Part shown: one piece after another, positions 11,421-29,344 of the stretch
How positions within the stretch are numbered: the first letter of the stretch is position 1
Layout: each line of letters opens with the position of its first letter
Source: an uncultured Dehalococcoidales bacterium
GTDB lineage: Bacteria > Chloroflexota > Dehalococcoidia > E44-bin15
Assembly: GCA_964583545.1 (NCBI GenBank)
Contig: CAZOVW010000002.1
Coordinates: forward strand, 1-44,097
Reading direction: 5' to 3'
Length of the DNA stretch: 44,097 nucleotides
Program-made: the position numbers and the translations under genes
Notes under the pieces: generated by a model
What the model was told of the DNA's origin: nothing
Seen by the model: only the letters and a program-made list of their open reading frames with translations
Database searches by the model: none

Positions 11421-11657
11421 TTAATCCGCCACCACGCTAACCGTGATGGCATTCTTGGGGCATGTTTCCTCACAGATCTTGCATCCGGTACACAGGCTCG
11501 GGGAAACCGGCATTACCGCCCAGTTCCCCGCTGCTTTGCCCGGCTTTCGCCCATCCCGCGGATAGGTCATGAATACTCCTTGGGGACACGCATCAAGGCA
11601 CTTGCGGCAATCGCGCGGGGCGGTGCATTTCTTATCATCCCACTCTATTTTTATCAT
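11421..11657 (-). CDS. Small 2x[4Fe-4S] ferredoxin-like protein
   Basis: Carries CxxCxxxCP motifs (CRKCLDACP; CTGCKICEETCP). Start set at ATG 11657 (MIKIEWDDKKC), 4 nt after the upstream stop; the track ORF extends to 11717. Confidence 0.7.
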   Translation of the reverse strand: MIKIEWDDKKCTAPRDCRKCLDACPQGVFMTYPRDGRKPGKAAGNWAVMPVSPSLCTGCKICEETCPKNAITVSVVAD

Positions 11658-11661
11658 GGCA

Positions 11662-12474
11662 TCACCACTCGTTAGCCAGCACAGGGATCGCGTTGCGGTC
11701 AAACAGGGTAATCGCATCTCGCGGGCATGCTGTGCGGCACAGGCCGCAACCGAGACACTGCAGTTGGTTTACCGTGCACTTCTCTGAAGCATGTGAATAG
11801 TTGATCGCGCCGAAGTGGCAGAACTTGATGCAATCGCGGCAACCATTGCACTTCTCAATATCGATGGCGGTTACATACTCCGCCTTAAAGAAGGGCCGTT
11901 GCTCTCCGAACCGCATTGACCTGAAACTCAGACAATCCGTGGGGCTGCAGTTGCAGAGCGCGCCGATAAAGGGAGGGCCATAGCTCCACACAGTATGGAC
12001 CAGGCCCTGTCGGTCAAACTTATGGAACTCCCTCTTCGTCTCCTCATTGGTTAGTACATCCAGTTCCCTTGACACATCTGGCCACTGCTCGAACATATCT
12101 TTCCAGAAATCTGACTCGGCGGCAACAATGTGAAAGCAGAACCGAGCATCGCCCACGCCATGAAGGGCAGTCCGGCAGAGGCAGGGTGTCCTCACTATGT
12201 TGAGGGTCATATCCAGTATCTTTTCTACGTCTTCCAGAGGAATAACCTGTCCCCAGTGCATTTTCTTCATTTCCGTAAACGTCTTCCTGAGAGCCTCATC
12301 GGGGTTGTCTGACCTATCAAGAGCGGCCCAACCATGTGCCGCCCATGACTCAAGGTTCTCATATAGCCAAAGCGTGAACTGTCTTGCCTCATCCGTGAGC
12401 ACGTCCTCAAGGTAGTTTTTCACCTGAAGATACCATTTCTTTCCCTCACCGTGCTTAACACAAAACTCACACAT
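11662..12474 (-). CDS. 4Fe-4S dicluster domain protein with a Cys-containing N-terminal domain of unknown function
   Basis: 270 aa. Starts MCEFCVKHGEGKKWYL; two ferredoxin motifs near the C-terminus (CNGCRDCIKFC; CLGCGLCRTACP). Confidence 0.6.
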   Translation of the reverse strand: MCEFCVKHGEGKKWYLQVKNYLEDVLTDEARQFTLWLYENLESWAAHGWAALDRSDNPDEALRKTFTEMKKMHWGQVIPLEDVEKILDMTLNIVRTPCLCRTALHGVGDARFCFHIVAAESDFWKDMFEQWPDVSRELDVLTNEETKREFHKFDRQGLVHTVWSYGPPFIGALCNCSPTDCLSFRSMRFGEQRPFFKAEYVTAIDIEKCNGCRDCIKFCHFGAINYSHASEKCTVNQLQCLGCGLCRTACPRDAITLFDRNAIPVLANEW

Positions 12475-12550
12475 CGCCTTGCCCCCTCAGATATTTCTCC
12501 CGCTACTTATACCATAATCTCCCTGGAAGAGATTATCGGACATAAGTGCT

Positions 12551-13492
12551 TCAAAGGCGCATCGCTTTGATAGACTCCGTGTCACTCATATTGAGAACTT
12601 GTACTTTATTACTAATCCTTTTGATCAGCTTGGAGAGGACTATCCCAGGGCCAATCTCTATGAAGGTGGAGACTCCGCCCCCTACCATATATTCCACTGA
12701 GAGCTGCCACTGAACACAGTGACATAGCTGCTGTAGGAGCTCTTCTTTCACCTCATCGAGGGTGGTTACAGGCTTAGCCGTGCTGTTAGCCACGATGGGA
12801 ACTTCGGGCGAGCGAAAGTTAACTCGTGAGATGGCCTGGGCCATGCCTTCAATGGTAGGCTGCATCAGGGCGGAATGAAAAGCGCCGCTAACCTCAAGCG
12901 GTACTACGCCGACGGCTCCTCTCGACTGGGCCAAGTCCATGGAGCGTGCCACTGCCTCCCTAGTGCCACTGATAACCATCTGCCCTGGGCAGTTGATATT
13001 GGCAATCTGGGTGGCGGTCTCCAGGCATATCTCTGCCACGGATGCCTCGTGAAGACCAATGATCGCTGCCATGCCTCCGGGTTTACTCTTGCCTACCTCC
13101 TGCATCAAGCGCCCTCGTTCCCTGGCAAGGCGAACCGCATCAACAAATTCAAGGGCGTTTGCGGCCACCAGCGCGGTGTACTCACCAATGCTATGTCCGG
13201 CGACAAGGGCGGGCTTTAGCGCACCATTGAGCTCTGAAGTAGCTTTTAAGTAGGCAATGCTGACTGTCAGTATTGCTGGCTGGGCATTAATGGTTTCGCG
13301 GAGTTCCTCCTCAGGACCTTCAAAACAAAGTCGGGACAGGGGAAATTGAAGCACTTGATCGGCCTCCTCGAAGACCTGCCTGGCCTGACGTGAACTCTGA
13401 TAAAGTTCGTAGCCCATCCCAACTGCCTGTGAGCCTTGTCCGGGAAAGACATAAGCAATCTTGCTTATCGGCCTTGTCTCTGGTTCAGCCAT
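12551..13492 (-). CDS. fabD: Malonyl-CoA:ACP transacylase
   Basis: 313 aa. FPGQGSQ and active-site GHSIGEY motifs. Confidence 0.9.
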   Translation of the reverse strand: MAEPETRPISKIAYVFPGQGSQAVGMGYELYQSSRQARQVFEEADQVLQFPLSRLCFEGPEEELRETINAQPAILTVSIAYLKATSELNGALKPALVAGHSIGEYTALVAANALEFVDAVRLARERGRLMQEVGKSKPGGMAAIIGLHEASVAEICLETATQIANINCPGQMVISGTREAVARSMDLAQSRGAVGVVPLEVSGAFHSALMQPTIEGMAQAISRVNFRSPEVPIVANSTAKPVTTLDEVKEELLQQLCHCVQWQLSVEYMVGGGVSTFIEIGPGIVLSKLIKRISNKVQVLNMSDTESIKAMRL

Positions 13493-13508
13493 GAGTTGTC
13501 TCCATTAG

Positions 13509-14102
13509 TCAATAGTAACTGAAATCCTCCGCAATAATCCATTCAATTTCATTGTCGTCTTTAAGGACGGAAATAATATGATTTTTGTAATGCAATTGCT
13601 CGACTCGAAAGAAGCGATCTCGATACTCCAAGACAATATGATTCTCATCGGGAACCGAGATTACCCGACAGGTCTTTAACCCACCGATGCCGATTCCGAT
13701 AGCTTTTAGAGTCGCTTCTTTTGCAGTCCAATAGCGAAAAAAGGTATCCCAAGACCTGTCTTTGCTTAACTCCCATTCTCCGTCGCTTGCCACATGGCTA
13801 AAGATAGATTCGGACCGAGGCTTTATTTCTTCAATATCGATCCCGATCTTTTCCTTACTGACAACCGCTGTCACGTACTTCGATTTATGGGAGAGGGACC
13901 AATAATTGCCATCAAATGGGCACGGGACATCGTTTTCATCTTTCAGTAGCTCTCCAAGTATCACTCCGCTCTTTTCCGCACTCAATCTTAATGCCTCTCT
14001 CGAAATTCTGCTTAGCCTGGCCACTTTTTCTCTTCCAGAGAGTTTATGTCCAACCTCGGCAACTGTCAGGATTACCGGAAATAGAGTCATTGGTCTGGTC
14101 AA
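13509..14102 (-). CDS. 4'-phosphopantetheinyl transferase, Sfp-type
   Basis: 197 aa. IGIDIEE and [10 protein letters not shown] motifs. The TTG start overlaps the fabI-like stop (TTGA); an alternative ATG lies at 14090. Confidence 0.75.
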
Positions 14103-14899
14103 ACCCTCATTACCTTATTGATGATATCTTTGTCGAAGTAGTTGGTCGCCATTCCACAATCGACGATGATGCCTTGGGCATTAATGCCGCTCGATCGGTC
14201 GCTCAAAAGAAATGCCACTGTATTGGCCACTTCTTTGGTGGTTAGAGCTTTTTTGCGTAGCGTTAATTGTTCGGCATAAAGGTAGTAGTCCAGGTATCCT
14301 GGTATCCCTGCGGATGCGGAGGTTTTCAACAGCCCGGGATTGACTGAGTTGAACCTGACTTGAGAAAACGAACTGAAGGACTTGGCCAGAAAGCATATTG
14401 TCGAATCCAGAGCAGACTTTACAGGTGCCATCCAACCATAAGGTTCGGCTGCCATTCTTGTGGTTGAGATTGATATGGTAACTACAGATGCCTTCTTATC
14501 CAGGAGGTCTTTAAATGCGTTGGCAATACTAATTAACGAGTAACAGGATATGTCAACAGATTGCAGGAAGTCTTTCCTCTTTGTTTCGTGAAACGGCTTA
14601 AGTCCACCTTCGTAGTTGGCAAAAGCAATGGAATGAACAATGCCATGAAGCGTGGCATACTTTTGGGAGATGTCTTTCGCTAGTTTTGTGATCTGGTGTT
14701 CCTGTTCCACATCACATATATAGATGTCTGCATCAGGAAAAAGCTTGGAAACACTTTCCTTTATTTTTGCAGACTGAACTGCATAGACGACCTCTGCCTT
14801 TGCCTCAGAGAGAACCTGGCCCACAGAGTAGGCCACGCTCTTCTTGTTAGCCACACCAAAAACGAGGATGGTCTTATTCTCAATACCTAAGAAATCCAT
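14099..14899 (-). CDS. fabI: Enoyl-ACP reductase, FabI-like SDR
   Basis: 266 aa. N-terminus [18 protein letters not shown] is FabI-type. A Tyr-x6-Lys is present (YGWMAPVK). Confidence 0.65.
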
Positions 14900-14916
14900 A
14901 CGATTTCCTTTAAACT

Positions 14917-15342
14917 TTAGATTCCAGGTTTAGCTAAGCTAACAGCAAATTCAACCGTTACCACCGTCTTTCCTGCGACTGACGCGCTGCCCTTCAGGAA
15001 AAAGGCATTGCCCACTTTTTCCACCAACTCGGCTTCCATTTCTAAGAGGTCACCCGGCTTGACCATATTTTTGAACTTGGCGTTGCTAATTCGGGTCAGC
15101 ACAGGGGTACCATCGCCAACATCACCAATAATGCTGGAGAGCAGAATCGCCCCAGTTTGAAAAATGGACTCACAAGTAAGTACCCCTGGCATAATCGGAT
15201 TTCCTGGGTAATGCCCCTTGAAAAATGCTTCCTGGGAGCCTATCTCTTTTGTTGCTTTGATTTTCGTTGCTGTTAACTCTACGATTTTATCGACGAACAA
15301 AAAGGGTGGACGATGAGGTATCGCCTTCAAGACTTGCTCCAT
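14917..15342 (-). CDS. fabZ: 3-hydroxyacyl-ACP dehydratase, FabZ-like hotdog fold
   Basis: 141 aa. [11 protein letters not shown] and [13 protein letters not shown] motifs. Confidence 0.85.
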
Positions 15343-15343
15343 T

Positions 15344-16084
15344 TCATAAACCTCCAGTCACCTCAAGGGTAGAACCGTTAACGTATGACGCCTCTCTAGA
15401 AGCCAAGAAAAGAACGCAAGCAGCGACCTCCTCAGGCTTCCCGAATCTCTTTAAGGGGATCTGGGCTATATAAGAATCGCGTAATTCATTAGGAAGGTCT
15501 TGAATTAATTCGGTGGCGATAAATCCCGGCGAGACGCAATTGACCGTAATGCCGCGGCTGGCGACTTCCTTGGACAATGATTTGGTCAACGCAACTAGGC
15601 CTGCTTTTGCGGCGGCATAGTTTGCCTGGCCTTCAAAGCCATACTTGCCGGAAGGAGAGGTTATATTAATAATCCGTCCATATCGTTTGCGCATCAAGCT
15701 CATGACCGCAAACTTGCACATGTAAAAGACTCCGTTGAGATTGACATTCAGCACATCATGCCACTGCGATTCTTTCATCATGGCCAGGACAGCGTCCTTC
15801 CGAATACCTGCATTGTTGACAAGTACTTCGAATCCTTCATATTTCTTGTCTATGTATTCAAAAAACTTTTCAACCTCTTCATATTTAGCTACGTCATATT
15901 TTTGGATATCAATATTTTTAGCGAACTCGCTGTTGTCTTGCTTAAATTGTGCCGCAGCAGCTTCGTTTGCGGAGTAGGTGACAATAACTCGGGCACCAGC
16001 TTTCAGGAAACTCTCCGCAATGCTTTTGCCTATCCCTCTCGTGCCACCAGTGACGATGACGGTCTGCCCTTTAAAATCATACAT
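15344..16084 (-). CDS. fabG: 3-oxoacyl-ACP reductase, FabG-like SDR
   Basis: TGGTRGIG, NNAG and YAAAKAG motifs. Start set at ATG 16084 (MYDFKGQ), downstream of the preceding stop at 16108; the track ORF extends to 16111. Confidence 0.85.
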   Translation of the reverse strand: MYDFKGQTVIVTGGTRGIGKSIAESFLKAGARVIVTYSANEAAAAQFKQDNSEFAKNIDIQKYDVAKYEEVEKFFEYIDKKYEGFEVLVNNAGIRKDAVLAMMKESQWHDVLNVNLNGVFYMCKFAVMSLMRKRYGRIINITSPSGKYGFEGQANYAAAKAGLVALTKSLSKEVASRGITVNCVSPGFIATELIQDLPNELRDSYIAQIPLKRFGKPEEVAACVLFLASREASYVNGSTLEVTGGL

Positions 16085-16107
16085 CTGGGGCCCCCTGCAA
16101 GCCGAAA

Positions 16108-17514
16108 TCAAGACCGCAAATATTCGTCAGCATTATTCGAGACAATCACCCCATAGTTGGCCGCGCCCAACCAACCGGACATAATAATTCCCACCGACCC
16201 GGTATGGAAAAGTCCGGGTATCTCTTCGGGAAGTCCCATGCTGATTTTTAATCCTTCAAATTTGGTGCCAAAAGAAGCGCCACATTCGTGAAGAGTGTAC
16301 CTCTGAAATGTTTTTGGGGTAGCAGCTTCTACATAATCGATTTTCTCTTGGACTCCAGGAATATATTTCTCTAAAGCATCGAGTGTCGATTCGATTAATT
16401 CCTCTTTAGATGTGCGGTATTCTTCCTCGGACAGGCTTGCCCAGTCTTCGTAGTTTGCATTAGTCGAAGAAACAATCGAGTACATGTCAGAGCCTGGTCG
16501 GGTTTCTGGATAATAGATGGAGAAGGTCCGGCTGGTGATATTTTTGCTGCAAAGTTTTTCGGAATCGAATTTTTCTGCTACTGAGGTAAAAAGCAAATCA
16601 CCTATGTAGTCGAATCCTTCACCTTTTTTGATACCTATATAGACCTGGCAACTGCTGTTATTGAGGCGTACCTTTCTTGCCTCTTCAATGAAGCTTCCAG
16701 AAAAGTGCTCGTCCCCGACGAGTTTATGAATGGTCGATTTTAAATTACCGTTGGAGACAGCAGCCTTACACTTGATCATCTTTCCATTAGCGATTACTCC
16801 CGATACTTTTTGATCCTGGATGACAATTTTTTCCACCAGACACTTAGTCCGAATATCGACACCATTTCTTATTAGCTCAGCCTGCATCTCTCCAATAAAC
16901 TTGTCTGTCCCGCCTCGAACGGTATAAACGCCTTTACTCATGAAGTTGGAAAACACGATTCCATAAGTTATCGCTGGGTCATCTAGAGTTGATCCATTCG
17001 CATAGGTGATCGGTTCCATTAGCAGGCGGACAACATCGTCACGGCCAGGAAAGAACTTTTGAAAAAGCTCTCTGGTTGTCATGGTTTGGTCATCATAGAA
17101 ATTCATATCTCTGGCTGTATTGAAAAAGCTTTCAATATTCTCTCGGGGTATTTCGAATCGCTCCTGCAGGATGCGCGTGAAATCCTCCCTATCGTAAGTC
17201 GTTGTAAGGGAGAACTGAGGGTTGTCAAACCTAATTCCCTTGAGTTGAACAATCATGTTAGCAATTTCAGGGGTCCAGTACTTACGGCAGGTCTTAATCA
17301 TGCCGACTGGAAATCCATGCAAGGAGATATCGAAGATGTGCCCCCCTTTCCTCTTGAACCAGGTAGCCAATCCACCGAGCTGATGGTGATGTTCCAGAAG
17401 TAAAACTGAATGGCCGTTTTTCGCTAGTATGTTTGCACAAGTCAGTCCAGCCAATCCACTGCCAATGACGATGGCATCATATTCTGGCTTTGTGTCTTTG
17501 AACCGATCGCTCAT
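16108..17514 (-). CDS. FAD/NAD(P)-binding oxidoreductase, phytoene desaturase (CrtI)/RetSat family, copy 2
   Basis: About 468 aa. Dinucleotide fold [15 protein letters not shown]...[11 protein letters not shown]. Start preferred at ATG 17514 (GGGAAGG 6 nt upstream); the track start is TTG 17520. Confidence 0.75.
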
Positions 17515-17532
17515 CAGCAACCTTCCCTCTTC

Positions 17533-18918
17533 TTATCCCTTCTGTAGTATGTGAAGATTTGCCATGGAGACACCGCTAAGCATTGCTCCGACGATTCCCA
17601 GAAATCCTTGGTCCGTGCCACAAATAAACAGGTTATCTAAATGAGTTCTTCCTGTCTTGATTTTATTTGGAGTCCCATATACTGCGCCGTTTAAGTGACT
17701 GGTGAATCTGTAAATCGTTTTAGGAGTGAATACATCCGAATAAACGATTGAATCACGAAAATCTGGCACGAATTTTACCACCTCTTTAAGCGTGGTTTCA
17801 AGCCAGGCAGCTTTTTGGGCTTTATACTCTTCTTCACCTAGCTTGTTCCAGAGATCGAAATTAGCCATGTTGGTTACCCTGATCATGGCTTCGGGCAGTG
17901 GGCTTTCGAAGTGAAAATTGTTAGGGCAGCATATAACACCACTTGAAACATCAACCAAATCGTCTGGTTTTCTATAATTGAATTTATCCGAGTTATTAAA
18001 AAAGGTGATTGTTGTGTCATAGCCCATTTCAGCAAGTTCTCTATCCAAGATCATAATAAACTCTATGAATGAAAGTTGCCCCACATCACACTTGAATCTC
18101 GTAGGGTCATAGTCAGACAAAAGCCTCATGGTTTCAACATAACCAGCCGATGATATTATCTTATCAGCCGTCAGCACTTCACCATTATCGAGTAATATCG
18201 ACTCAACCTTGCTGTTAGCAACTTGAATACTTTGCACCCCGCACTTTAGCCTTAATTCGCCGCCGTTATCTTTATATTTCTTGACTAGTACATCGAGTAT
18301 CTGCCGGACACCAGCTTGGGGCCTGGCAAAACCTTCGCAGAAGATACTATTGAACATGATAACGAACTGCCCGAATTCCATGTCATTTTCCTGGGCATTG
18401 CCGTAGTACATGAGTGGGCAAAAGATCATATCAATGAGGAGCGGGTCAGAAATAATCGAGCTCACAACTTCGCAAGCCGAGATTGGTTTTGCATCCAGGG
18501 CCAATGCGTCATATTCAGAAATAGTTTTAAGCAACTTTTGAAAGTTGTCAGCTTGCGCTGGAAAATTCTCGACTACCTCTTGGGCAAAAAAGTCTAGGTT
18601 GTTATTAAATCTCAAGGTTTTCTCTGGGAATTTAACCACTGACATCCGTTGTTGGCAGAGAGCAAAATCTTCAACTTTTAGCTTGAGCTGTCGCAGTAAC
18701 TTTGGCAGTGGCGTTGCTTTGATACCTTTGGGAACATAATTGGTCATTGCATGAAGACCAACATCAAATTTATGTCCGTCCCGGCTATAGAATGAATTTA
18801 ATCCCCCGACACGATAATGTTTTTCGAGGATGCAAACCTTCTTACCGTAGTAGGCCAATCTAATGCCGGCGGCAAGACCAGACATTCCTGCGCCAATAAT
18901 GAGAACGTCGTAACTCAT
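17533..18918 (-). CDS. FAD/NAD(P)-binding oxidoreductase, phytoene desaturase (CrtI)/RetSat family, copy 1
   Basis: 461 aa. YDVLIIGAGMSGLAAG...ILEKHYRVGG. Paralogous in architecture to the downstream gene. Confidence 0.75.
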   Translation of the reverse strand: MSYDVLIIGAGMSGLAAGIRLAYYGKKVCILEKHYRVGGLNSFYSRDGHKFDVGLHAMTNYVPKGIKATPLPKLLRQLKLKVEDFALCQQRMSVVKFPEKTLRFNNNLDFFAQEVVENFPAQADNFQKLLKTISEYDALALDAKPISACEVVSSIISDPLLIDMIFCPLMYYGNAQENDMEFGQFVIMFNSIFCEGFARPQAGVRQILDVLVKKYKDNGGELRLKCGVQSIQVANSKVESILLDNGEVLTADKIISSAGYVETMRLLSDYDPTRFKCDVGQLSFIEFIMILDRELAEMGYDTTITFFNNSDKFNYRKPDDLVDVSSGVICCPNNFHFESPLPEAMIRVTNMANFDLWNKLGEEEYKAQKAAWLETTLKEVVKFVPDFRDSIVYSDVFTPKTIYRFTSHLNGAVYGTPNKIKTGRTHLDNLFICGTDQGFLGIVGAMLSGVSMANLHILQKG

Positions 18919-18939
18919 AGTTAGGCCCTATAGAGAGAC

Positions 18940-18965
18940 TTCTCCCCCGTTTCGCAAGGGGAGAA
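18940..18965 (-). promoter_or_regulatory. Stem-loop in the acp-to-crtI-like spacer
   Basis: TTCTCCCC (18940-18947) pairs with GGGGAGAA (18958-18965), with a 10-nt loop. No U-tract follows on the minus strand. Confidence 0.35.
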
Positions 18966-19037
18966 AATTATGTGGACCTTCGATTCTTTGGTGAAATGAG
19001 GTGGAATAATGTATTTCGGTTCGCTGACATCTAATGG

Positions 19038-19289
19038 CTACATATCTTTCATCAGTGGCTCTAAATAAGCCACAGCGCCGTCCAATGTAGATAATCGCAT
19101 ATAGTCGTCTTCCGGCACCATGATACGGTAGCGTTTTCGCAACTCCATGATGATGTCCAAAAAATCCATCGAGTCCATTTCGATTTGATCTCGTATGGGG
19201 ACATCACTCTTAAGATCGCTCAAATCTTCGTCCGGTAAAATTTGGTGGATGAACTCTAAAATCTTGGATCTAATTTCCTCTGCTTTCAT
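19038..19289 (-). CDS. Acyl carrier protein (atypical, cluster-specific)
   Basis: 83 aa. The phosphopantetheine-Ser context EMDSMDFLDIIMEL differs from housekeeping AcpP (DLGADSLDTVELV). Confidence 0.8.
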   Translation of the reverse strand: MKAEEIRSKILEFIHQILPDEDLSDLKSDVPIRDQIEMDSMDFLDIIMELRKRYRIMVPEDDYMRLSTLDGAVAYLEPLMKDM

Positions 19290-19307
19290 ATGTTTCTTAG
19301 CCCTCTA

Positions 19308-21644: not shown

Positions 21645-21764
21645 CGAATAACCCCTCTACAGACTCGCTACCATGTCAGGAACATAGCTCCCGGTTTCTA
21701 CAGCGACATATTGGCATCACATGGCACATCACAACGGTTAGAAGCTCTAAAGGAAAATGTTGTA

Positions 21765-22178
21765 TTAATCTTTGCGTGATTTACCTTCCTCTCTCGATAG
21801 CAACGTTGGGATATGAAACTTCATCTTAAGATTTGACCAGCTATCAAGGGACTTCGAGGGAATTATCCTGTCCGGCACATACTTGTATATTCCGGCGATG
21901 ACAGCGGAAATCTTTCTCGAATTTGCTGCTGTATCCGGGATATACTCATCTGCTGCGGCAATAAGAGAAGAGCGCACCTTATGAGGAAGTTTATCTAGCT
22001 CATTAATGACCCTATCGATCGCTTTAGGTGGGACACACTTATCTAATATATTCATGAAAAGGAGCAGCAGGCTATCCGGCACATATCTGTCCACTACCTT
22101 TGCCGCAAGCGAGATTGCCTTCCTCGAGACAAATCTGCCCACCGATTTAAAGAGAGAAATTTTTCTCTTTGACAACAT
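21765..22178 (-). CDS. Hypothetical small protein with four [YC]-[VI]-P-[DP] repeats
   Basis: 137 aa from ATG 22178 (AGGAGGG 6-7 nt upstream); the track ORF starts at TTG 22208. Repeats are DRYVPD, DKCVPP, DEYIPD, YKYVPD. I recognise no family. Confidence 0.45.
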   Translation of the reverse strand: MLSKRKISLFKSVGRFVSRKAISLAAKVVDRYVPDSLLLLFMNILDKCVPPKAIDRVINELDKLPHKVRSSLIAAADEYIPDTAANSRKISAVIAGIYKYVPDRIIPSKSLDSWSNLKMKFHIPTLLSREEGKSRKD

Positions 22179-22240
22179 AGCTTTCCCTCCTGCTCGAATA
22201 TACTGCAACTAGTGGAATATAGTAATCTATGCGATGTATA

Positions 22241-22270
22241 ATTATCACATCTTAAAGGCATGCTTGTCAA
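22241..22270 (-). promoter_or_regulatory. Candidate internal promoter ahead of the small protein / thiolase / KS / ACP genes
   Basis: On the minus strand: TTGACA (22265-22270), 18-nt spacer, TGtGATAAT (GATAAT at 22241-22246). Confidence 0.4.
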
Positions 22271-22325
22271 CGACAGATCGCTTGCCTGTCCTTTACTTTC
22301 AAGGTGAGTATCTCAAGAAGTGCGC

Positions 22326-23642
22326 CTAATTTTTGAGCCAAAAGTGGGTCTTATCAAATTCTTTCGATCGGTATCGCTCCCATCTTGGAAAAATCTCTTG
22401 GTAGATCCCAAGCCTTATCCCAATTAACTTTATAGCTCTCAGAAGTAGCATTCTAAGCATCCTTGGCTTACTAAGAAGTGCTTTCATCAGCACAAGAAGG
22501 GTTCTAGTCAGTGTAGGTGAGCATCCCTCTATTTTGGTGGCGTTCTGTAAGCTCTTATTACTTCTGATTGCACAGTCGCCGTAAAGAAAGACTTTTTTCG
22601 TATCTCTTTCTGGCCTTAATTCCAGCCCATAATATAACTCCACACCGCCAAAATCCATTTTAGGATTATCTTTGGCAAGTATTGATAGCGCTAAAGCGAG
22701 CGTGGCACCACAAGCTGAACAAAGGCTCTGTCCTGGAGGGGGAGCTGAAAGTCCTGTAACTTTTGCTGGGGTCAATAATTCTTTATCTGGTTCAAACTGC
22801 CACTCAAGCTGCTCCTTTAGAGATTCTATATCTTCTCCTTTGATTTGGATCGTGCTGATATCTAAAGATCGATTATGCCTTTCGGCAAATTCTCTCAGAT
22901 AGTCAACTTGTGACGGATCGATCCCCAGTATTGTTGCCCCAACAATATCGCACTCGAATATATCTGGGCTTGCTATAATCAAATCCTTGCGGTGGGCCAC
23001 CCCCACGAGAGTTTCTGGCCCTTTTCCCAACATGTATATTCCATCAATTATGACCAAGTCACTCTTGATTGCTTCGTTCAAAAGGCAAATTAGAGAATCT
23101 AGTCGGTTGGTAATATGAAACCTTTTTTTTGAAGCTTGGCTGAGGCAACCCTTCAGATTCTTGAAACCCAGAGAGACCTTTGTTTGGAAGTGGGTTTTTA
23201 GTACTGGGACATTGATTAGAAAGTCTGCCTCTAAAGCTGTTTTGGAAACCTGGACTTTTACCCCTCCTAAATCTAGCTCCTGAAAAGGACCCTGGTTGAA
23301 ATCGATCAGTTTAGCCCCGTATTTTTCAGCCACCTTGTCTATACCTGTCCCCTTAAAACCTCGTTTCGTATACGGCTCAAGTTCATCAAATATACCAATG
23401 ATGGCACCTTCACCTATAGAAATATCTTTGCAGCCATATTCGAGCAATAATTGTATGATTCCGTCTATGATCTTTGAGGTGGTCACCATTCCATAGGGAG
23501 GCATTATTTCGTGGCGGAAACAGTTATTGGGTTTTATCAGGATTTCGTCATTCCTATTGAGTTTCTCAAATCCATCACATAGTTTAATGGCGCGTCGAAT
23601 AGAATCAAGAGACCCATCAAATCTCACTAGCGATACTGTCAT
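22326..23642 (-). CDS. DUF362-domain protein with a C-terminal extension
   Basis: 438 aa. N-terminal ...ILIKPNN...MVTTSKIIDGIIQLLLEYGCKDISIGEG pattern typical of DUF362 (PF04015). C-terminal 130 aa contain Cys motifs (CSACG; YGDCAI; EGCSP) and a basic/hydrophobic tail. Confidence 0.5.
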   Translation of the reverse strand: MTVSLVRFDGSLDSIRRAIKLCDGFEKLNRNDEILIKPNNCFRHEIMPPYGMVTTSKIIDGIIQLLLEYGCKDISIGEGAIIGIFDELEPYTKRGFKGTGIDKVAEKYGAKLIDFNQGPFQELDLGGVKVQVSKTALEADFLINVPVLKTHFQTKVSLGFKNLKGCLSQASKKRFHITNRLDSLICLLNEAIKSDLVIIDGIYMLGKGPETLVGVAHRKDLIIASPDIFECDIVGATILGIDPSQVDYLREFAERHNRSLDISTIQIKGEDIESLKEQLEWQFEPDKELLTPAKVTGLSAPPPGQSLCSACGATLALALSILAKDNPKMDFGGVELYYGLELRPERDTKKVFLYGDCAIRSNKSLQNATKIEGCSPTLTRTLLVLMKALLSKPRMLRMLLLRAIKLIGIRLGIYQEIFPRWERYRSKEFDKTHFWLKN

Positions 23643-23686
23643 TATTCGCCCCCCAACCAGCCGAGGCTCAGAGGGAACATTGCTCG

Positions 23687-25045
23687 CTACTCCCTGACCA
23701 ACGGGTAGTTTCTTATTTCTTCGAGGTATGAGTCCAGAAAACTCTGAGCCTTTTCCCTGGAGAAGAGGCCGGTTCTATAGCCCAGGCAGACCTGCAACCT
23801 GCCGCTGTAGGTGTATGTCCCCAGGCTCAGCCCCATGGGGGTAACCAGTGGCGGGGCGGTTTCCATGTTCACTATCTTGGCGCTGCCGATTCGGAGCTCT
23901 CCCCATTCTTCGGGCCAGACCACGCCTACATTACTAACGAAAGTGGTATCAACATATATTCGAGTAATCATCAAGAACCTGCACATTGCTCTCATAACGA
24001 CCTGGGGAAAGCGAGAACAAAAGTAATAGAAATAAACCAGGGAGTATTGGATGCCATCCTTGACTATTGAGGCCATATCCACCCTCACCTTATGTAGCAG
24101 CTTTACCGGGTCAGCCCTATCTTCGGGCATGGTCGGTAGGGAAACCCAGGCTACCTGGTTTGAAACCACATCCTTAGGCCCCCTGGGCCCGATGAATGTG
24201 GGAACCATTAGGCGTATACATTTGCTACCTTTGCCGTGCAGGCTGTTCCATCTCTCAATAACCCTGAAGCAGGCTGCCAGCAGGACATCATTCAGGGTAA
24301 CACGAGCTGCCTTTGCTCTTGACCGAATTTGCCCAAACTCTGCTGGGTCTATGGTCCTATTGCAGTAGTCGGTTCCCTTTGACCGCTCTGACCTGTCGTG
24401 GAAGATCCTTGTCGGTGGGTGGAAAGGTGCTATGAAGAATCGATGGAAAAGGCTATAGATCATTTTCATATAGTAGTGCTCTACGCTTGGCCTTTGGCTG
24501 CGTGCAAATTGTAGTATTTCATCCCCTTTACGGGATATGGGGAAATCATCGAGGGACTTAGAGTCTTCAGGAACGTCCTTATCGTAACTTTCAAAGATCT
24601 TCCGGATGAAAAGAACGGCGCCGAGCCCATCCACTGCAATGTGATGACCAGTGAAAATCAGTGAAGATTCAACCTCATTCTTTTTTAAGAGAAGGGCTCT
24701 AAATGGGAATTCCTTCCATAGGTTCAGGGGTTGGTTTATCCATTCAGAAAGGCACCTCTCATAGTTTGCATCTGGGAGTTTGGCCAGGTCTTTGACAGTC
24801 AGAGCTTTCTCTCCGAGGTCTTCCTGTACTTCTTGGAAAGTCCTGAAATACTTACTTCGCAGGATTGTTCTCATTTGGGGATGAGCTTTTAGGGCGGATA
24901 GGATTGCTCGATTCAACCTATCGGCATCTATTTCTCCTTCGATGTTCAGGATTTGGTGGGCAATCATAGGCTCGTTTATGCTGTCAAGAGCTAGTAGACA
25001 CTTGCTAACGCAATTCAGAGGCATTCGAACGTTGGAATTTCCCAT
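23687..25045 (-). CDS. HHxxxDG acyltransferase (condensation / WS-DGAT / PapA5 superfamily), paralogue A
   Basis: 452 aa. Catalytic motif GHHIAVDGLG at about residue 134; N-terminal IEGEIDADRLNRAILSALKAHPQMRTIL resembles C-domain motifs C1-C2. GGGAGG RBS. Confidence 0.7.
   Translation of the reverse strand: MGNSNVRMPLNCVSKCLLALDSINEPMIAHQILNIEGEIDADRLNRAILSALKAHPQMRTILRSKYFRTFQEVQEDLGEKALTVKDLAKLPDANYERCLSEWINQPLNLWKEFPFRALLLKKNEVESSLIFTGHHIAVDGLGAVLFIRKIFESYDKDVPEDSKSLDDFPISRKGDEILQFARSQRPSVEHYYMKMIYSLFHRFFIAPFHPPTRIFHDRSERSKGTDYCNRTIDPAEFGQIRSRAKAARVTLNDVLLAACFRVIERWNSLHGKGSKCIRLMVPTFIGPRGPKDVVSNQVAWVSLPTMPEDRADPVKLLHKVRVDMASIVKDGIQYSLVYFYYFCSRFPQVVMRAMCRFLMITRIYVDTTFVSNVGVVWPEEWGELRIGSAKIVNMETAPPLVTPMGLSLGTYTYSGRLQVCLGYRTGLFSREKAQSFLDSYLEEIRNYPLVRE
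24545..24987 (-). repeat. Identical block shared with 28416-28858 (inside paralogue A)
   Basis: Line-by-line comparison at offset 3871 shows no mismatch across about 443 nt. Identity drops on both sides. Confidence 0.85.
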
Positions 25046-25074
25046 TATTATCCTCCCTTCTTTTTGATTGCCTC

Positions 25075-26631
25075 TTAATTGACCTGACGCTCCTGTCCCT
25101 CCCAGTACTTCTTGCGCAGTTCAGCCTTCAGTACTTTGCCTGCGAGGTTCTTTGGTAGGAGTTCCACGAACTCGACTGACTTGGGTTTCTTGTATGATGC
25201 CAGGTTTTCCTTACAGCCCCGGATAATCTCTTCTTCGCTCGCCTTCATTCCCGGCTTCAGTTTCACAAAGGCTTTTATAGACTCCCCCCACACCTCGTCA
25301 GGGATGCCGATAACCGCCGTCTCAAGTACAGCCGGGTGCTTAAAGATAGCATTCTCCACTTCCATGGGATACACGTTATAGCCTCCAGTGATAATCATGT
25401 CCGTTTTACGGTCAGCTATAAATAAGTATCTTTCCTCATCGAGATACCCCATATCCCCCGTAAAAAGCCACCCATCTCTTATCGCTTTCTGAGTTGCTTC
25501 CGGGTCTTTCCAGTACTCCTTCATCACCAATGGGCTGCGGACGATGATTTCTCCTTTCTCTCCTGTCGGGACATCATTTCCGTCATCATCCACCACGCGT
25601 ATATTGGTCATGACGAGCTCGCGTCCCGCTGACCCTAACCGACGAGTTTGCTCATCAGTGCCTCCGATTACGTGATCATCCACGCTCAGCGAGGTTATAA
25701 AGAAGCACTCCACCAAACCATAGGCCTGGATGAACACATCTCCGAAAACATCCAGTGCCTGTTTCAACTTCTCCACAGCCATGGGTGCGGAGGAATAAGG
25801 GAGTCTCCTCAGAGTGCTGAGGTCATAATTCTTGAGGTTAGGGTAGGCGAGGAGGAAATAGATGATAGTGGGTGCCAGCCATACCGTGGTGACTTTTTCC
25901 TTTTGAATTGTATCCAGAGCGAAATCGATGTCGAGGTGGCTGATGAGGATGTTGGGCACCCCCATCATGAAATGGGGTGGGAGGAGAACGCCCGAGGCGT
26001 GGTTTATGGAGGCGACGTAGAGGGCCACATCGTCGGGTTGGACATTTGTTTCAATACAGTACATATAGGTGGCCATTATAAGGGCCCTATGCGTTTGCAC
26101 ACAGCCCTTGGCCTTGCCGGTGGTGCCCGAAGTATGGAGGATGGCAATAGGGTCGTTCTCATCGATTTCCACTCGCGTGGGTTTGTCGCTTGCTTTGTCC
26201 ATAAGGTCCTCATACCTCTCCATACCAGAGAAGCCCTCGCCATCTACTATGAAGTGCTCCACAGTCTCGATCTTATCTTTCACAGAGTCTATGCCTTCGG
26301 CGAACTTCTGCTGGATGATAAGGGCTCGGGACTCCGCGTTGTTAAGATGGTAGGCATGCTCCAAGGGGTGATGACGGGAATCTAAAGGTGCCCATACCAT
26401 GCCGTTCTTGATCAGTCCATACTGGGCTTCTACGGCCATCAGAGAATTTTCTGCCAGTATCGAGACACGGTCGCCTTTCTTAAGGCCAAGACCGTGTAGG
26501 ACATTGCCTATCTTGTTTACCTGCTTCTCCAACTCCCGGTAGGTCACCCGGCGGTCAGCGTGGACTACTGCTACCCGGTCAGGATAATTCATAAACCCTC
26601 TTTTTACCAGACTCCACAAATCCATTTTCAT
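25075..26631 (-). CDS. AMP-forming acyl-CoA/acyl-ACP ligase (ANL superfamily, FadD-like)
   Basis: 518 aa. A3 motif LHTSGTTGKAKG and TGD/GYxxxxDR core (FTGDMGYLDEERYLFIADRKTDMI). Confidence 0.85.
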   Translation of the reverse strand: MKMDLWSLVKRGFMNYPDRVAVVHADRRVTYRELEKQVNKIGNVLHGLGLKKGDRVSILAENSLMAVEAQYGLIKNGMVWAPLDSRHHPLEHAYHLNNAESRALIIQQKFAEGIDSVKDKIETVEHFIVDGEGFSGMERYEDLMDKASDKPTRVEIDENDPIAILHTSGTTGKAKGCVQTHRALIMATYMYCIETNVQPDDVALYVASINHASGVLLPPHFMMGVPNILISHLDIDFALDTIQKEKVTTVWLAPTIIYFLLAYPNLKNYDLSTLRRLPYSSAPMAVEKLKQALDVFGDVFIQAYGLVECFFITSLSVDDHVIGGTDEQTRRLGSAGRELVMTNIRVVDDDGNDVPTGEKGEIIVRSPLVMKEYWKDPEATQKAIRDGWLFTGDMGYLDEERYLFIADRKTDMIITGGYNVYPMEVENAIFKHPAVLETAVIGIPDEVWGESIKAFVKLKPGMKASEEEIIRGCKENLASYKKPKSVEFVELLPKNLAGKVLKAELRKKYWEGQERQVN

Positions 26632-26637
26632 GTCTCC

Positions 26638-27429
26638 TTACATCATGCTGAAACCGCCGCTAACGCTAAGGGTCTGACCTGTGATGAAGTTCGCGGCGTC
26701 TGAGGCTAGGAATACTACTGCGTTAGCCACTTCCTCCGGTTTCACCAGGCGGCCCATGGGGTACTGGCTAATTGCCTTCTCCTTCATCTCTGGAGGTATC
26801 ATGTCGAGAGTCACGCCGGCCCACGCGCTGGTTTTACTCACCGTCCCAGGTTTCTCAGGGATGGTAAGTCCAGGGCAGACAGTATTGACGGTTATGCCAA
26901 ATCTTCCCATCTCCCGCGCTATAGCTTTCCCGAAAGCGATGGCAGCTCCCTTCGTCCCCGAATAAACCGCTCCTCTTGACTGACCCATCCGACCAGCATC
27001 AGAGGAAATGTTCACAATCCTGCCAGCCTTACGCTCGATCATGTGATCCAAAACAGCCCTGGTGCAATTGATCACGCCCAGGTAATTGATCTTGATCTCC
27101 TTCTCATATTCCTCCCTGGGCTCCTCCATGAACAGCTTGTTGGCTACCCAGCCTGCGTTATTGACCAAGATGTCTATATTTCCAAACATTTCCAGAGTCT
27201 TTTTTACCATCGCTTCTACGGAATCATAATCTGTTACATCCGTCTTAATGGCGAGGGCTTTTCCACCCAGGGCTTCAGCTTCCTTGACCACCTTTTGTGC
27301 CTGTTCCTCATCAAGATTAGCGATCACCACATTAGACTTCTCTCTGGCGAAAGCCAGAGTTATGGCACGACCAATATTTGAGTCTCCCCCGGTAACGATA
27401 ATCGTCTTACCTTCCAGCCCTAACTCCAT
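26638..27429 (-). CDS. Classical short-chain dehydrogenase/reductase
   Basis: 263 aa. TGGDSNIG, NNAG and YSGTKGA motifs. Its stop lies 7 nt upstream of the ligase ATG. Confidence 0.8.
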   Translation of the reverse strand: MELGLEGKTIIVTGGDSNIGRAITLAFAREKSNVVIANLDEEQAQKVVKEAEALGGKALAIKTDVTDYDSVEAMVKKTLEMFGNIDILVNNAGWVANKLFMEEPREEYEKEIKINYLGVINCTRAVLDHMIERKAGRIVNISSDAGRMGQSRGAVYSGTKGAAIAFGKAIAREMGRFGITVNTVCPGLTIPEKPGTVSKTSAWAGVTLDMIPPEMKEKAISQYPMGRLVKPEEVANAVVFLASDAANFITGQTLSVSGGFSMM

Positions 27430-27551
27430 TCATTTGACCCCTAAATATGGTGGAATTTGAACATCTTCACAAAACAGCAACCCTTGTCGCAAATATAGTA
27501 TGGAAAACCCACTTTTCAGTAGAATAATTATCAGACAAACCGGCGGTTATT

Positions 27552-28928
27552 TCAACACTCCCTGACCACGGGGTAGTTTCTTATCTCTTCAACATATAGG
27601 TCTAAAAACCTCTGAGCCTTTTCCCTGGAGAAGAGGCCGGTTCTATAGCCCAGGCAGACCTGCAACCTGCCGTTGTAGACGGATGTCACCAGGGTCATCG
27701 GCAGGAGGGACCCAACAGGTGGAACGCCCTCTATGCCCACTATCCTGGCGCTGCCGATTCGGAGCTCTTCTCTCCATGCTTCGGGCCAGATCACGCCTAG
27801 GTTACTAACGACAATGGTATCAACATATATTCGAGTAATCATAAAGAACCTGGCCATTCCTCTCATAACCACCAGAGGAAAGCGAGAGAGGAGGTAAGCG
27901 AGGTAAAGTTGGGAGAAGGGGATTCCATTCTTGACCATTGAGGCCATATTCGCCCTCACCTTATGTAGCAGCTTTACTGGATCGGCCCTATCTTTGGGCA
28001 TGGTCGGTAGGGAAATCCCGGATACCTGGTTTGAAACCACATCCTTAGGCCACTTGGGCCCGATGAATAGGGGAGTCCATATGCGTATACATTTGCTGCG
28101 TTTGCCGTGCAGGCTGTTCCATCTCTCAATAACCCTGAAGCAGGCTGCCAGCAGGACATCGTTCAGGGTAACGCGGGCTGCCTTCGCTCTTGACCGAATT
28201 TGCCCAAACTCTGCTGGGTCTATGGTACCATTGCAGTAGCCGGTTCCCTCTGACTGCCCCGACCTGTCGTGGAAGATCCTTCTCGTTGGGTGAAAAGGCG
28301 CTATGAAGAATCGATGGAAAAGGCTGTAGATCATTTTCATATAGTAGTGCTCCACGCTTGGCCTTTGGCTGCGTGCAAATTGCAGTATTTCATCCCCTTT
28401 ACGGGATATGGGGATATCATCGAGGGACTTAGAGTCTTCAGGAACGTCCTTATCGTAACTTTCAAAGATCTTCCGGATGAAAAGAACGGCGCCGAGCCCA
28501 TCCACTGCAATGTGATGACCAGTGAAAATCAGTGAAGATTCAACCTCATTCTTTTTTAAGAGAAGGGCTCTAAATGGGAATTCCTTCCATAGGTTCAGGG
28601 GTTGGTTTATCCATTCAGAAAGGCACCTCTCATAGTTTGCATCTGGGAGTTTGGCCAGGTCTTTGACAGTCAGAGCTTTCTCTCCGAGGTCTTCCTGTAC
28701 TTCTTGGAAAGTCCTGAAATACTTACTTCGCAGGATTGTTCTCATTTGGGGATGAGCTTTTAGGGCGGATAGGATTGCTCGATTCAACCTATCGGCATCT
28801 ATTTCTCCTTCGATGTTCAGGATTTGGTGGGCAATCATAGGCTCGTTTATGCTGTCAACAGCTAATATACCCTTCTCAATGGAATTCAGAGGCATTGACC
28901 TGCCGGGCCTTTTCACTTTTCTTTGCAT
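27552..28928 (-). CDS. HHxxxDG acyltransferase, paralogue B
   Basis: Same GHHIAVDGLG motif. The N-terminal half is almost identical to paralogue A and the C-terminal half diverges. Start is uncertain: ATG 28928 or ATG 28895 (MPLNS..., matching A). The track ORF start at 29006 overlaps the SRPBCC gene. Confidence 0.7.
   Translation of the reverse strand: MQRKVKRPGRSMPLNSIEKGILAVDSINEPMIAHQILNIEGEIDADRLNRAILSALKAHPQMRTILRSKYFRTFQEVQEDLGEKALTVKDLAKLPDANYERCLSEWINQPLNLWKEFPFRALLLKKNEVESSLIFTGHHIAVDGLGAVLFIRKIFESYDKDVPEDSKSLDDIPISRKGDEILQFARSQRPSVEHYYMKMIYSLFHRFFIAPFHPTRRIFHDRSGQSEGTGYCNGTIDPAEFGQIRSRAKAARVTLNDVLLAACFRVIERWNSLHGKRSKCIRIWTPLFIGPKWPKDVVSNQVSGISLPTMPKDRADPVKLLHKVRANMASMVKNGIPFSQLYLAYLLSRFPLVVMRGMARFFMITRIYVDTIVVSNLGVIWPEAWREELRIGSARIVGIEGVPPVGSLLPMTLVTSVYNGRLQVCLGYRTGLFSREKAQRFLDLYVEEIRNYPVVREC
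28416..28858 (-). repeat. Identical block shared with 24545-24987 (inside paralogue B)
   Basis: See the feature at 24545-24987. Confidence 0.85.
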
Positions 28929-29344
28929 AGCGATCGCTCGATCCTCGTTTTTGCTGCTGGCGCAATCTTGTCTGAGATTGCTTGACCACCTCGGTATGCC
29001 AGCCATGCCAGGGGCCCTGAGACCTCGCCGCCTATAGTGACCCTCGTTTTGCCATTTACAGGTTCCAGAGTATAGAAGCGTGTTAACTTGGTGCCTAAGG
29101 CTTTTCCTTGCATGACCACGGCGCGTTGTGGGACGAATTCGGTGATAGTCATCACCAACTTAACTCTGATCCTGCTTACCTTAAGTGTCACAGAAAGTTG
29201 TGAGCCTACTGTCAAAGGCCCCTCGGGGACTCTCTCAATCTTCTTAATGGACGGTATCCATTCGGACCACTCTTCAAGATTATCAACTAACGTCCAGACC
29301 TTCTCTAGAGGAGCATTGATCTCAACACTGCTGCTAAACCTCAT
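28913..29344 (-). CDS. SRPBCC (polyketide cyclase/START-like) family protein
   Basis: MRFSSSVEINAPLEKVWTLVDNLEEWSEWIPS... is a typical SRPBCC N-terminus. Start set at ATG 29344 (GAGGGGG RBS) rather than track TTG 29410. Confidence 0.65.
   Translation of the reverse strand: MRFSSSVEINAPLEKVWTLVDNLEEWSEWIPSIKKIERVPEGPLTVGSQLSVTLKVSRIRVKLVMTITEFVPQRAVVMQGKALGTKLTRFYTLEPVNGKTRVTIGGEVSGPLAWLAYRGGQAISDKIAPAAKTRIERSLCKEK

Follow-up and report, generated by a model that had tools for sequence, protein, structure and literature searches.

What does a private set of lipid-synthesis genes do in an uncultured Dehalococcoidales bacterium, and does it make the ordinary fatty acids of the cell or something else? 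We addressed this question for a contig of 44,097 nucleotides (nt; CAZOVW010000002.1 of assembly GCA_964583545.1, here called the window), in which 19 consecutive open reading frames (ORFs), all on the minus strand, occupy positions 11421-29410. The block that holds them was acquired horizontally and forms a genomic island in the chromosome of a Dehalococcoidia bacterium. On balance, and with belief only a little ahead of doubt, we read it as an acquired secondary-lipid cluster in which an OleA-type thiolase, a private type II fatty acid synthase (FAS) and flavoproteins would make a head-to-head condensed, esterified lipid.

An acquired block at a site that is empty in close relatives

Comparison by blastn with related loci (designated here by L numbers) defines an 18.1-kb insertion at window 11396..29537, with its left edge at 11396 and its right edge at about 29520-29537. 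Positions 519-1656 of L062 align to window 30597-29538 and positions 1727-5501 to window 11395-7645, and the gap between the two aligned stretches is only about 70 nt. The same site is also empty in L063, where QueA lies directly beside FTHFS, as it does in L062. Both relatives were reached through valyl-tRNA synthetase (ValRS), which is 85% (L062) and 82% (L063) identical to the host enzyme at the amino acid level; the flanking DNA is about 85% identical to each, with a gene order common to both. The host ValRS is 86% identical to proteins of Dehalococcoidia metagenome-assembled genomes (MAGs), which identifies the host as a member of this class. The flanks hold housekeeping genes: ValRS, CoaBC, CoaX, Nnr, ThyX, FolD, an amidohydrolase and FTHFS on one side, and QueA and dCMP deaminase on the other, with RecF, DnaN and LeuRS further out. 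The GC content is 0.449 in the core (13509-22208), against 0.566 and 0.556 in the flanks.

Genes were called from Pfam and NCBIfam profile scores, compared with the family cut-offs, over the 44-kb window and over related loci with 10 kb on either side. The features of the block are listed below in 5' to 3' order on the minus strand. The original prediction, made from the sequence alone, had described a tightly spaced minus-strand array (overlaps to about 120 nt) with these gene identities; the observed spacing and the profile matches both agree with it.

29410-29382, minus strand: promoter-like site at the SRPBCC gene (consensus match)
28913..29344, minus strand: SRPBCC/polyketide_cyc2 lipid-binding protein (PF10604); the ORF extends to 29410
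27552..29006, minus strand: AT2, HHxxxDG acyltransferase (AT), paralogue of AT1, probable start 28895 (Pfam/NCBIfam)
26638..27429, minus strand: classical short-chain dehydrogenase/reductase (SDR), BadH/FabG-like, not OleD-type (Pfam/NCBIfam)
25075..26631, minus strand: FadD-like long-chain acyl-CoA ligase (PRK06187, 487 bits against a cut-off of 476)
23687..25045, minus strand: AT1, HHxxxDG acyltransferase of condensation/WS-DGAT/PapA5-like type, probable start 25024 (PF00668, WS_DGAT_C, PapA_C; TIGR02946; WSD structure 7NXG in the PDB)
22326..23642, minus strand: DUF362 protein of the LarA-clan fold family; its C-terminal half contains Cys (PF04015, E 5e-39)
22241..22270, minus strand: promoter-like site upstream of rep147 and the core operon, 11/12 matches with an extended -10 (a consensus match only)
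21765..22208, minus strand: rep147, small basic protein of 147 amino acids (aa) with about four Y(V/I)PD-type repeats (no Pfam or NCBIfam match)
20595..21644, minus strand: OleA-type thiolase (PRK09258, 435 bits against a cut-off of 285)
19308..20546, minus strand: FabF-like elongating ketosynthase (KS), Cys-His-His intact in ACAAG, HATGT and GHAMGAAG (PF00109, PF02801; TIGR03150, 337 bits against 494)
19038..19289, minus strand: atypical dedicated acyl carrier protein (ACP) with its serine in the motif D-S-M-D (PF00550; below all AcpP cut-offs)
17533..18918, minus strand: CrtA, flavin adenine dinucleotide (FAD) flavoprotein of the CrtI/CrtISO superfamily (Pfam/NCBIfam superfamily match; AlphaFold model)
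16108..17520, minus strand: CrtB, second FAD flavoprotein of the CrtI/CrtISO superfamily, about 24% identical to CrtA (PF01593, PF13450)
15344..16111, minus strand: FabG-type 3-oxoacyl-ACP reductase (TIGR01830, 296.6 bits against 297.75; PRK12826.1-2, 266 against 222)
14917..15342, minus strand: FabZ-type 3-hydroxyacyl-ACP dehydratase (PRK00006, 124 bits against 113; FabZ matches in the PDB)
14099..14899, minus strand: divergent FabI-type enoyl-ACP reductase (adh_short_C2; best FabI model 181 bits against 362; Y-x6-K as YGWMAPVK)
13509..14102, minus strand: Sfp/HetI-type 4'-phosphopantetheinyl transferase (PPTase; PF01648; best NCBIfam models HetI, AusB and EntD)
12551..13492, minus strand: FabD, malonyl-CoA:ACP transacylase (TIGR00128, 331 bits against a cut-off of 261)
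11662..12474, minus strand: FeS270, Cys-rich protein of 270 aa with a C-terminal 2x[4Fe-4S] domain (Pfam/NCBIfam)
11421..11717, minus strand: Fdx, 2x[4Fe-4S] ferredoxin, 98-aa ORF with a probable later start (Pfam Fer4 families)
11364..11394, minus strand: strong, possibly bidirectional intrinsic-terminator hairpin at the island's left edge, 14-bp stem with 9 G-C pairs and a T-run

The closest relatives of the cluster, L065 and L066, carry a CrtA that is 95% identical and lie in different genomic surroundings. Their DNA is about 90% identical to window 12512-21584 (L065) and 12546-23645 (L066), with homology ending just past FabD at about 12512-12546, and the DUF362 protein of the window is 92% identical to the L066 copy. 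Because the site is empty in L062 and L063, the GC content is foreign and DNA matching at about 90% occurs elsewhere in L065 and L066, the block qualifies as an island. Identity to L010 is 87-88% for CrtA, CrtB and FabG and 84-88% for the cluster proteins overall; the ValRS on the contig presumed to carry L010 is only 70% identical to that of the host.

The insertion is seated between the host FTHFS terminator, which is also present in L062, and a promoter-like site of QueA. Since the terminator at 11364..11394 falls in DNA homologous to the island-free L062, which has an equivalent hairpin, it belongs to the FTHFS side of the host and not to the cluster. An array ending at a strong terminator, as originally proposed, thus has a real hairpin at its end, but one that is the host's own. 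No tRNA gene, Rfam family, integrase or transposase was found as a signature of mobility of the island, and no direct or inverted repeats of at least 25 nt flank it. In a plasmid collection, tblastn with CrtA gave a single match of 24.6% and no evidence of plasmid carriage. We judged a chimeric assembly unlikely as the source of the GC step: the two flanks run collinear with one and the same set of relatives, and the insertion boundaries lie exactly between a terminator and a promoter.

The GC step recurs in L065, where the cluster (1-9022; DNA 91% identical to that of the window) has a GC content of 0.464 against 0.555 in the flank (9100-14040). L066, at 90% DNA identity, has a uniform GC content of about 0.45 and may represent a donor-type lineage. 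The island splits a neighbourhood of genes related to C1 metabolism and the Wood-Ljungdahl pathway (window 7715-11343 and 31602-33221), with FolD and formate-tetrahydrofolate ligase on one side and a CooC-like ATPase and a short CdhC-domain protein on the other. Near the right contig end are recF and dnaN (39673-42246), and dnaA is missing from the interval that separates dnaN from leuS; the GC skew reverses at about 37-39 kb but mostly follows the coding strand, so no origin was called.

The empty site also bears on the simplest account of these genes, that they are the sole housekeeping type II FAS of the host and make ordinary membrane fatty acids. All activities of the elongation cycle are present together with FabD, ACP and PPTase, no further FAS genes occur in the 44-kb window, and acpS at its conserved site is a remnant. 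Against this, L062 and L063 lack the block at this site and retain acpS, and the GC content of the block is foreign to the host. The cluster has no FabH-type initiator, and its thiolase is OleA-type. FabD and FabZ pass the cut-offs of the housekeeping equivalogs and FabG is borderline, but ACP, KS and FabI fall below them. The best NCBIfam score of the ACP is 39.8 bits, against cut-offs of at least 66; it matched E. coli AcpP only at E 0.009 and gave only remote ACP matches in a search of the PDB. Moreover, the same set is an accessory of oleABCD in phyla known for a normal FAS II. We therefore regard a housekeeping role as very improbable, and the assignment to the secondary-lipid type is supported. 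The original prediction of such a cluster, with an ACP lacking the AcpP signature and a private PPTase, is borne out by the low ACP score, the Sfp-type PPTase and the absence of the block from two close relatives.

The acpS remnant is a frameshifted 3' piece (about residues 96-120) at window 6776-6850 on the minus strand, between nnr (5216-6775) and thyX (6955-7695). An intact acpS of 127 aa occupies the same position in L061, L062 and L063. The genome that gained the island with its Sfp-type PPTase has thus lost acpS at the conserved site of that gene. In the window thyX is intact; in L062 and L063 it is reduced to a fragment or remnants.

The conserved unit and its OleA-type thiolase

A scan of a genome collection with CrtA returned 57 loci, mostly from Dehalococcoidia/Chloroflexota MAGs, and homologues of CrtA at 75-95% identity number in the thousands in metagenomes. 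This neighbourhood search, of the kind proposed with the original prediction, recovered the same gene order in dozens of genomes. By tblastn and ORF clustering the fixed order is rep147-thiolase-KS-ACP-CrtA-CrtB-FabG-FabZ-FabI-PPTase, followed by either FabD or a DUF362-AT-SRPBCC module. The 18.1-kb block is real, but the conserved unit within it, (AT-DUF362)-rep147-OleA-KS-ACP-CrtA-CrtB-FabG-FabZ-FabI-PPTase-(FabD), accounts for only about 11-13 kb of what had been taken for an 18-kb cluster. The unit is syntenic in dozens of Dehalococcoidia genomes, and gene order is kept across Dehalococcoidia, Nitrospirales, Planctomycetales and Bacteriovoracaceae. Beside the cluster we found PPTase in 33 loci, FabI in 38, rep147 in 22, DUF362 in 20 and AT in 17 (as one copy); SRPBCC is linked to AT-DUF362 in 12 loci, FabD holds the same position in L001, L005, L006, L014, L046, L065 and L066, and rep147 directly upstream of OleA is conserved in Dehalococcoidia.

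Comparison with the related loci gives ratios of nonsynonymous to synonymous substitution (dN/dS) of 0.06-0.25 for the core genes, at dS of 0.3 to more than 2, and of 0.2-0.5 for rep147. Every core gene is under purifying selection, and the recurrence of one order in dozens of genomes, together with these ratios, means that the arrangement is not due to chance. The remainder of the block is specific to the window: Fdx, FeS270, the ligase, the SDR and a second acyltransferase accompany the cluster in none of the related loci (57 or more). By this comparison the ligase, SDR and Fe-S genes appear as passengers or local additions in a mosaic 18-kb island. Individual genes have discordant dS values, and the window joins a 'type 1' core to a 'type 2'-like DUF362, which argues for mosaic exchange.

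Several relatives vary the arrangement. Two versions of the cluster, 'type 1' (CrtA 90% identical to that of the window) and 'type 2' (81%, with a convergent DUF362-AT-SRPBCC), occur on separate contigs of one MAG, CSMAG_2505 (L005 and L019); this double set represents either coexisting paralogous systems or contamination of the bin. OleA-KS(-ACP) is duplicated in tandem upstream of CrtA in L001:4370-9809, L006:4203-9833, L039:4435-9824 and L008:5823-9833. A protein of about 1,415 aa, with two BcrAD/BadFG ATPase domains and DUF2229 ('CoA enzyme activase'), is encoded beside the cluster in eight loci (L001, L010, L011, L013, L027, L035, L052 and L053; for example L013:2273-6535), as the immediate upstream neighbour of rep147, with the same orientation, in seven of the eight and downstream and inverted in L027. 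The window has, in its place, a separate BcrAD ATPase gene and three HGD-D (2-hydroxyacyl-CoA dehydratase-like) genes at 33292-37941, outside the island. A gene for a B12-binding radical S-adenosylmethionine (SAM) protein lies between AT and DUF362 in L066:2464-3876, and one for a radical SAM protein of 316 aa lies beside SRPBCC in eight 'type 2' loci (including L020:18903-19853).

The thiolase is the gene that gives the cluster its proposed chemistry. Over residues 1-349, its full length, it matches structures of X. campestris OleA (3ROW, 4KTI and 5VXD) with E of about 5e-63, whereas the next-best matches, to FabH, have E of 1e-22 or worse. Residues Cys123, His276 and Asn306 align with Cys143, His285 and Asn315 of X. 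campestris OleA, and Glu97, in the motif D-F-L-E-P, is the equivalent of OleA Glu117 in D-Y-L-E-P. In OleA, Glu117 is the base for the non-decarboxylative Claisen condensation; FabH has Phe at this position. The Cys/His/Asn set and the Glu are kept in 43 of 43 full-length homologues from related loci and also in L043. We call the thiolase OleA-type because it scores above the PRK09258 cut-off, resembles OleA over its full length and has these four residues; by every available sequence test it is a member of the OleA family. The description 'OleA/FabH-like' accordingly stands in its first half, down to the Glu, and not in its second, as the protein is not a FabH-type initiator. The OleA-specific Glu also strengthens the suspicion, voiced in the original prediction, that the product may be condensed head to head. 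An OleA homologue of Halobacteriovorax marinus, which may or may not be the orthologue of the cluster's protein, was active in an OleA-specific p-nitrophenyl ester assay (PMC7064751).

Distant members of the family connect this thiolase to the Ole pathway. In Nitrospirales (L043 and L045) the order is oleA-oleB-oleC-oleD-KS-ACP-CrtA-CrtB-FabG-FabZ-FabI, and in Bacteriovoracaceae (L049 and L050) it is KS-ACP-CrtA-oleA-oleB-oleC-oleD, with FabI-FabZ-FabG close by. In these four loci OleC scores 500-619 bits with the olefin beta-lactone synthetase model, below its cut-off, and exceeds the cut-off of PRK09274; OleD scores 333-397 bits with the 2-alkyl-3-oxoalkanoate reductase model, below the cut-off; and the OleB position is taken by a haloalkane-dehalogenase-like hydrolase. 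In a Planctomycetales locus, KS-ACP-CrtA-CrtB-FabZ-FabI faces genes for an OleA homologue, a GMC oxidoreductase and an adenylating enzyme. Without a carboxyl group, an olefin cannot be attached to ACP, so the Fab/ACP set acts upstream of OleA in the Ole-bearing relatives, where ACP, KS and the Fab enzymes must be a private supplier of acyl chains to OleA.

These fusions, and the intact active site of the window's OleA, raise the question whether the full Ole pathway operates here too, with oleBCD elsewhere in the genome and a long-chain, possibly polyunsaturated olefin as product. In tblastn searches, OleB, OleC and OleD of L043 and L049 had no match in the window, except for OleC against the FadD-like ligase at 24-25% identity, and no match in any of about 50 Dehalococcoidia loci with 10 kb on either side. 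The Dehalococcoidia loci keep the AT-DUF362-SRPBCC module instead, and oleBCD did not come in with the island, which was acquired as one block. We consider an olefin product quite unlikely. The claim that the cluster does not match 'ole' holds for the window itself, but not for the relatives that fuse the same set to oleABCD.

Candidates for the missing Ole proteins were rejected in each case. The ligase is FadD-type (PRK06187), only 24-25% identical to OleC and not found in related loci; the SDR is a classical BadH/FabG-like enzyme that is likewise not found there; and an alpha/beta-hydrolase beside the L065 cluster has only generic similarity to OleB (34% over 117 aa).

The flavoproteins and the tailoring genes

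CrtA and CrtB both carry the dinucleotide-binding motif, and the best NCBIfam model of each is carot_isom (TIGR02730), at 109 and 106 bits against a cut-off of 587. An AlphaFold (AF2) model of CrtA, with a mean confidence (pLDDT) of 75, has as its best Foldseek matches the carotenoid desaturases 4REP, 4DGK and 5MOG (TM score 0.5-0.67, 15-19% identity). By profile score, then, the two proteins are CrtI superfamily members only and not carotenoid enzyme equivalogs, and no genes of carotenoid or isoprenoid synthesis are present in the cluster. The ACP gene lies directly upstream of CrtA in every architecture, in four phyla, and CrtB always follows CrtA in the Dehalococcoidia, Nitrospirales and Planctomycetales loci; in Bacteriovoracaceae it is absent.

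The one published proposal that we found for such proteins is an unproven anaerobic acyl desaturation by the CrtI-like proteins of clusters in anammox bacteria and Desulfotalea (PMC2649909); in a 2026 review the anammox desaturation step is still given as hypothetical (PMC13459092). We tentatively suggest, with considerable doubt, that CrtA and CrtB may be O2-independent FAD desaturases or isomerases acting on ACP-bound chains, in a dissociated type II route to (poly)unsaturated chains that OleA would couple to ketones, hydrocarbons or esters in strict anaerobes. FabX of Helicobacter pylori, a flavin/[4Fe-4S] acyl-ACP dehydrogenase-isomerase (PMC8626469), offers a precedent for an O2-independent flavoenzyme that forms a double bond on an ACP-bound chain within type II FAS. 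However, it has an unrelated fold (FMN, NMO family) and serves housekeeping synthesis of unsaturated fatty acids, and the analogy is one of function only.

The flavoprotein pair could instead act after the condensation, desaturating a long ketone or olefin beside its central group, with the Fab set determining only chain length. The nearest structural relatives, 4REP, 4DGK and 5MOG, do act on long hydrocarbon chains, and the OleA product resembles a symmetric long-chain substrate. On the other side stand the invariable position of the ACP gene directly upstream of CrtA in four phyla, the marine Planctomycetes homologues of CrtA beside carrier-protein lipid modules without OleA, and the difficulty of rationalising a private FAS without chain modification. 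This order of events seems to us unlikely.

The marine homologues come from Planctomycetes/Tara contigs (L058-L060:3371-15350), where a CrtA homologue about 69% identical to the protein of Planctomycetales L048 occurs in another lipid context. Its neighbours encode a fusion of AMP-binding and PP-binding (FAAL-ACP) parts with an aminotransferase, a protein of 923 aa, an epimerase/3beta-HSD, a UDP-glucose dehydrogenase, a KS and an RND pump, and OleA is not among them.

Given the anammox precedent, a pathway to ladderane-type or other radical-SAM cyclised lipids also has to be weighed. The clusters of anammox bacteria and Desulfotalea (kuste3603-3608 and kuste3335-3352; PMC2649909, PMC4790861) share with the window the presence of CrtI-superfamily flavoproteins among ACP, FabF, FabZ and FabG, and radical SAM genes occur near some relatives of the cluster (the B12-binding type in L066, the 316-aa type in eight 'type 2' loci). 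Compared by description, however, the window lacks their radical SAM proteins, SAM methyltransferases and non-canonical FabF, and has an OleA that those clusters, as described, do not. Neither a radical SAM protein (PF04055) nor a SAM methyltransferase is among the 19 window proteins, the KS triad is canonical, and in the PDB neither FabZ nor ACP stands particularly close to anammox proteins. A ladderane-type pathway is scarcely credible here. The idea of an anammox-like FabZ or ACP was itself rejected, the anammox matches in the PDB being no better than those to ordinary FabZ or ACP.

Upstream of the core lie the tailoring genes. The AT-DUF362-SRPBCC module is linked to the core in two orientations, being on the opposite strand in one group of loci, and the persistence of the linkage in different orientations suggests that the module is functionally linked to the core. 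Matches of the acyltransferases to WS_DGAT_C and PapA_C are weak and all far below the family cut-offs. DUF362 has a clan relation to LarA (PMC11770544); no sequence-level match to it was found in the PDB. A stretch of about 420 nt is the same in AT1 and AT2 at 100% nt identity (~24545-24965 and ~28416-28836), whereas the two genes are otherwise 80-95% identical; the ligase and SDR genes sit between them, and no related locus has two AT copies.

The proposed pathway and its place among known systems

In the pathway that we favour, the Sfp-type PPTase would activate the dedicated ACP and FabD would load malonate, after which KS, FabG, FabZ and FabI would extend a primer on this ACP as a separate acyl pool. 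The two FAD flavoproteins would then alter the ACP-bound chain, most likely by O2-independent dehydrogenation or double-bond isomerisation. OleA is predicted to couple two chains by non-decarboxylative Claisen condensation to a 2-alkyl-3-oxo acid. Because OleB, OleC and OleD are missing here, this intermediate would decarboxylate to a long mid-chain ketone or be reduced to a hydroxy-branched lipid. The PapA5/WS-DGAT-like acyltransferase or acyltransferases would esterify the product, SRPBCC would carry the lipid, and DUF362 would perform an unspecified step. The likely product, deduced from the gene content, is thus a ketone or hydroxy-branched lipid that is subsequently esterified. In E. coli, a Pfa synthase combined with OleA and without OleBCD gave a 31:8 ketone (PMC6463001).

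Several points weigh against this pathway. OleBCD could be encoded elsewhere in the genome, as the search covered the window and 10 kb on either side of the loci, and the Fab enzymes could work on the product of OleA rather than upstream of it. To our knowledge, the OleA enzymes studied to date use acyl-CoA and not acyl-ACP, and we know of no family member with a known product. The roles given to DUF362 and rep147 are guesses, and the identical block in AT1 and AT2 reflects either recent gene conversion or an assembly artefact. CrtA and CrtB are only remote relatives of the carotenoid desaturases (15-19% identity), and the CrtI-like homologues of Kuenenia made no lycopene and had no CrtI activity (PMC4790861).

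Comparison with characterised systems places the cluster apart from each of them. Like the OleABCD systems of Xanthomonas, Shewanella and Micrococcus, it has an OleA-type thiolase, and its distant family members carry complete oleABCD; in contrast, the window and the Dehalococcoidia loci are without OleB, OleC and OleD, and the private ACP, KS, FabG, FabZ, FabI and PPTase and the flavoproteins are not found in described ole loci. In Shewanella and Photobacterium a Pfa synthase supplies OleA (PMC6463001), which resembles the proposed scheme in that a dedicated secondary-lipid synthase feeds the condensation. However, the supplier in the window is a dissociated type II set with flavoproteins rather than a multidomain PfaA-D, and no PfaT-like thioesterase was identified. 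Models of the Pfa, flexirubin and DAR systems match the window weakly (PfaA 87-142 bits against 1010; DarB 26 against 550), and the 261 bits of the FlxB SDR model, against 340, reflect generic FabG similarity.

The beta-lactone pathways that use OleA homologues (lipstatin LstAB, nocardiolactone) likewise have an OleA-type condensation without OleB, and tandem OleA paralogues, a further likeness, also occur in L001, L006 and L039; these pathways, however, need OleC and OleD homologues, which are missing here. With PapA5 and WS-DGAT the acyltransferases share the HHxxxDG motif, and their weak matches suggest transfer of long acyl chains to a hydroxyl acceptor, but the window proteins score far below the family cut-offs. 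Judged by its gene content, the cluster is not of the Pfa, aryl polyene, flexirubin/DAR, oleABCD or anammox candidate type, the defining parts of which are missing. For the first three these parts are the multidomain PfaA-D, a KS/CLF pair with ApeI/ApeP dehydratases, and DarA/DarB. The claim that it matches no characterised cluster has held up in the full-text literature, where we found no paper describing a cluster of OleA, type II FAS and CrtI-like genes; only the anammox hypotheses turned up.

In anoxic sediments and aquifers, Dehalococcoidia rank with the most abundant bacteria, yet little is known of their lipids. Dozens of species-level genomes carry the cluster, as do metagenome contigs in their thousands, and it moves between lineages. 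Because it is widespread, strongly selected and mobile, it probably specifies an abundant class of lipids that is as yet unassigned. These may be long-chain ketones, hydroxy-branched acids or esters of such compounds, and the class could be useful as a biomarker. The genus Halobacteriovorax, in which the Bacteriovoracaceae version occurs, includes cultured species. With the link to OleA, head-to-head chemistry is no longer confined to olefins and beta-lactones, and the cluster family offers an entry point to the reaction of lipid-associated CrtI-like flavoproteins, which has been a question since the anammox ladderane clusters of 2009. If CrtA and CrtB do act on ACP-bound chains as suggested above, the cluster family would parallel the Pfa-to-Ole route with type II enzymes and would provide the first assigned function for an enzyme type that has long been hypothesised as a ladderane desaturase.

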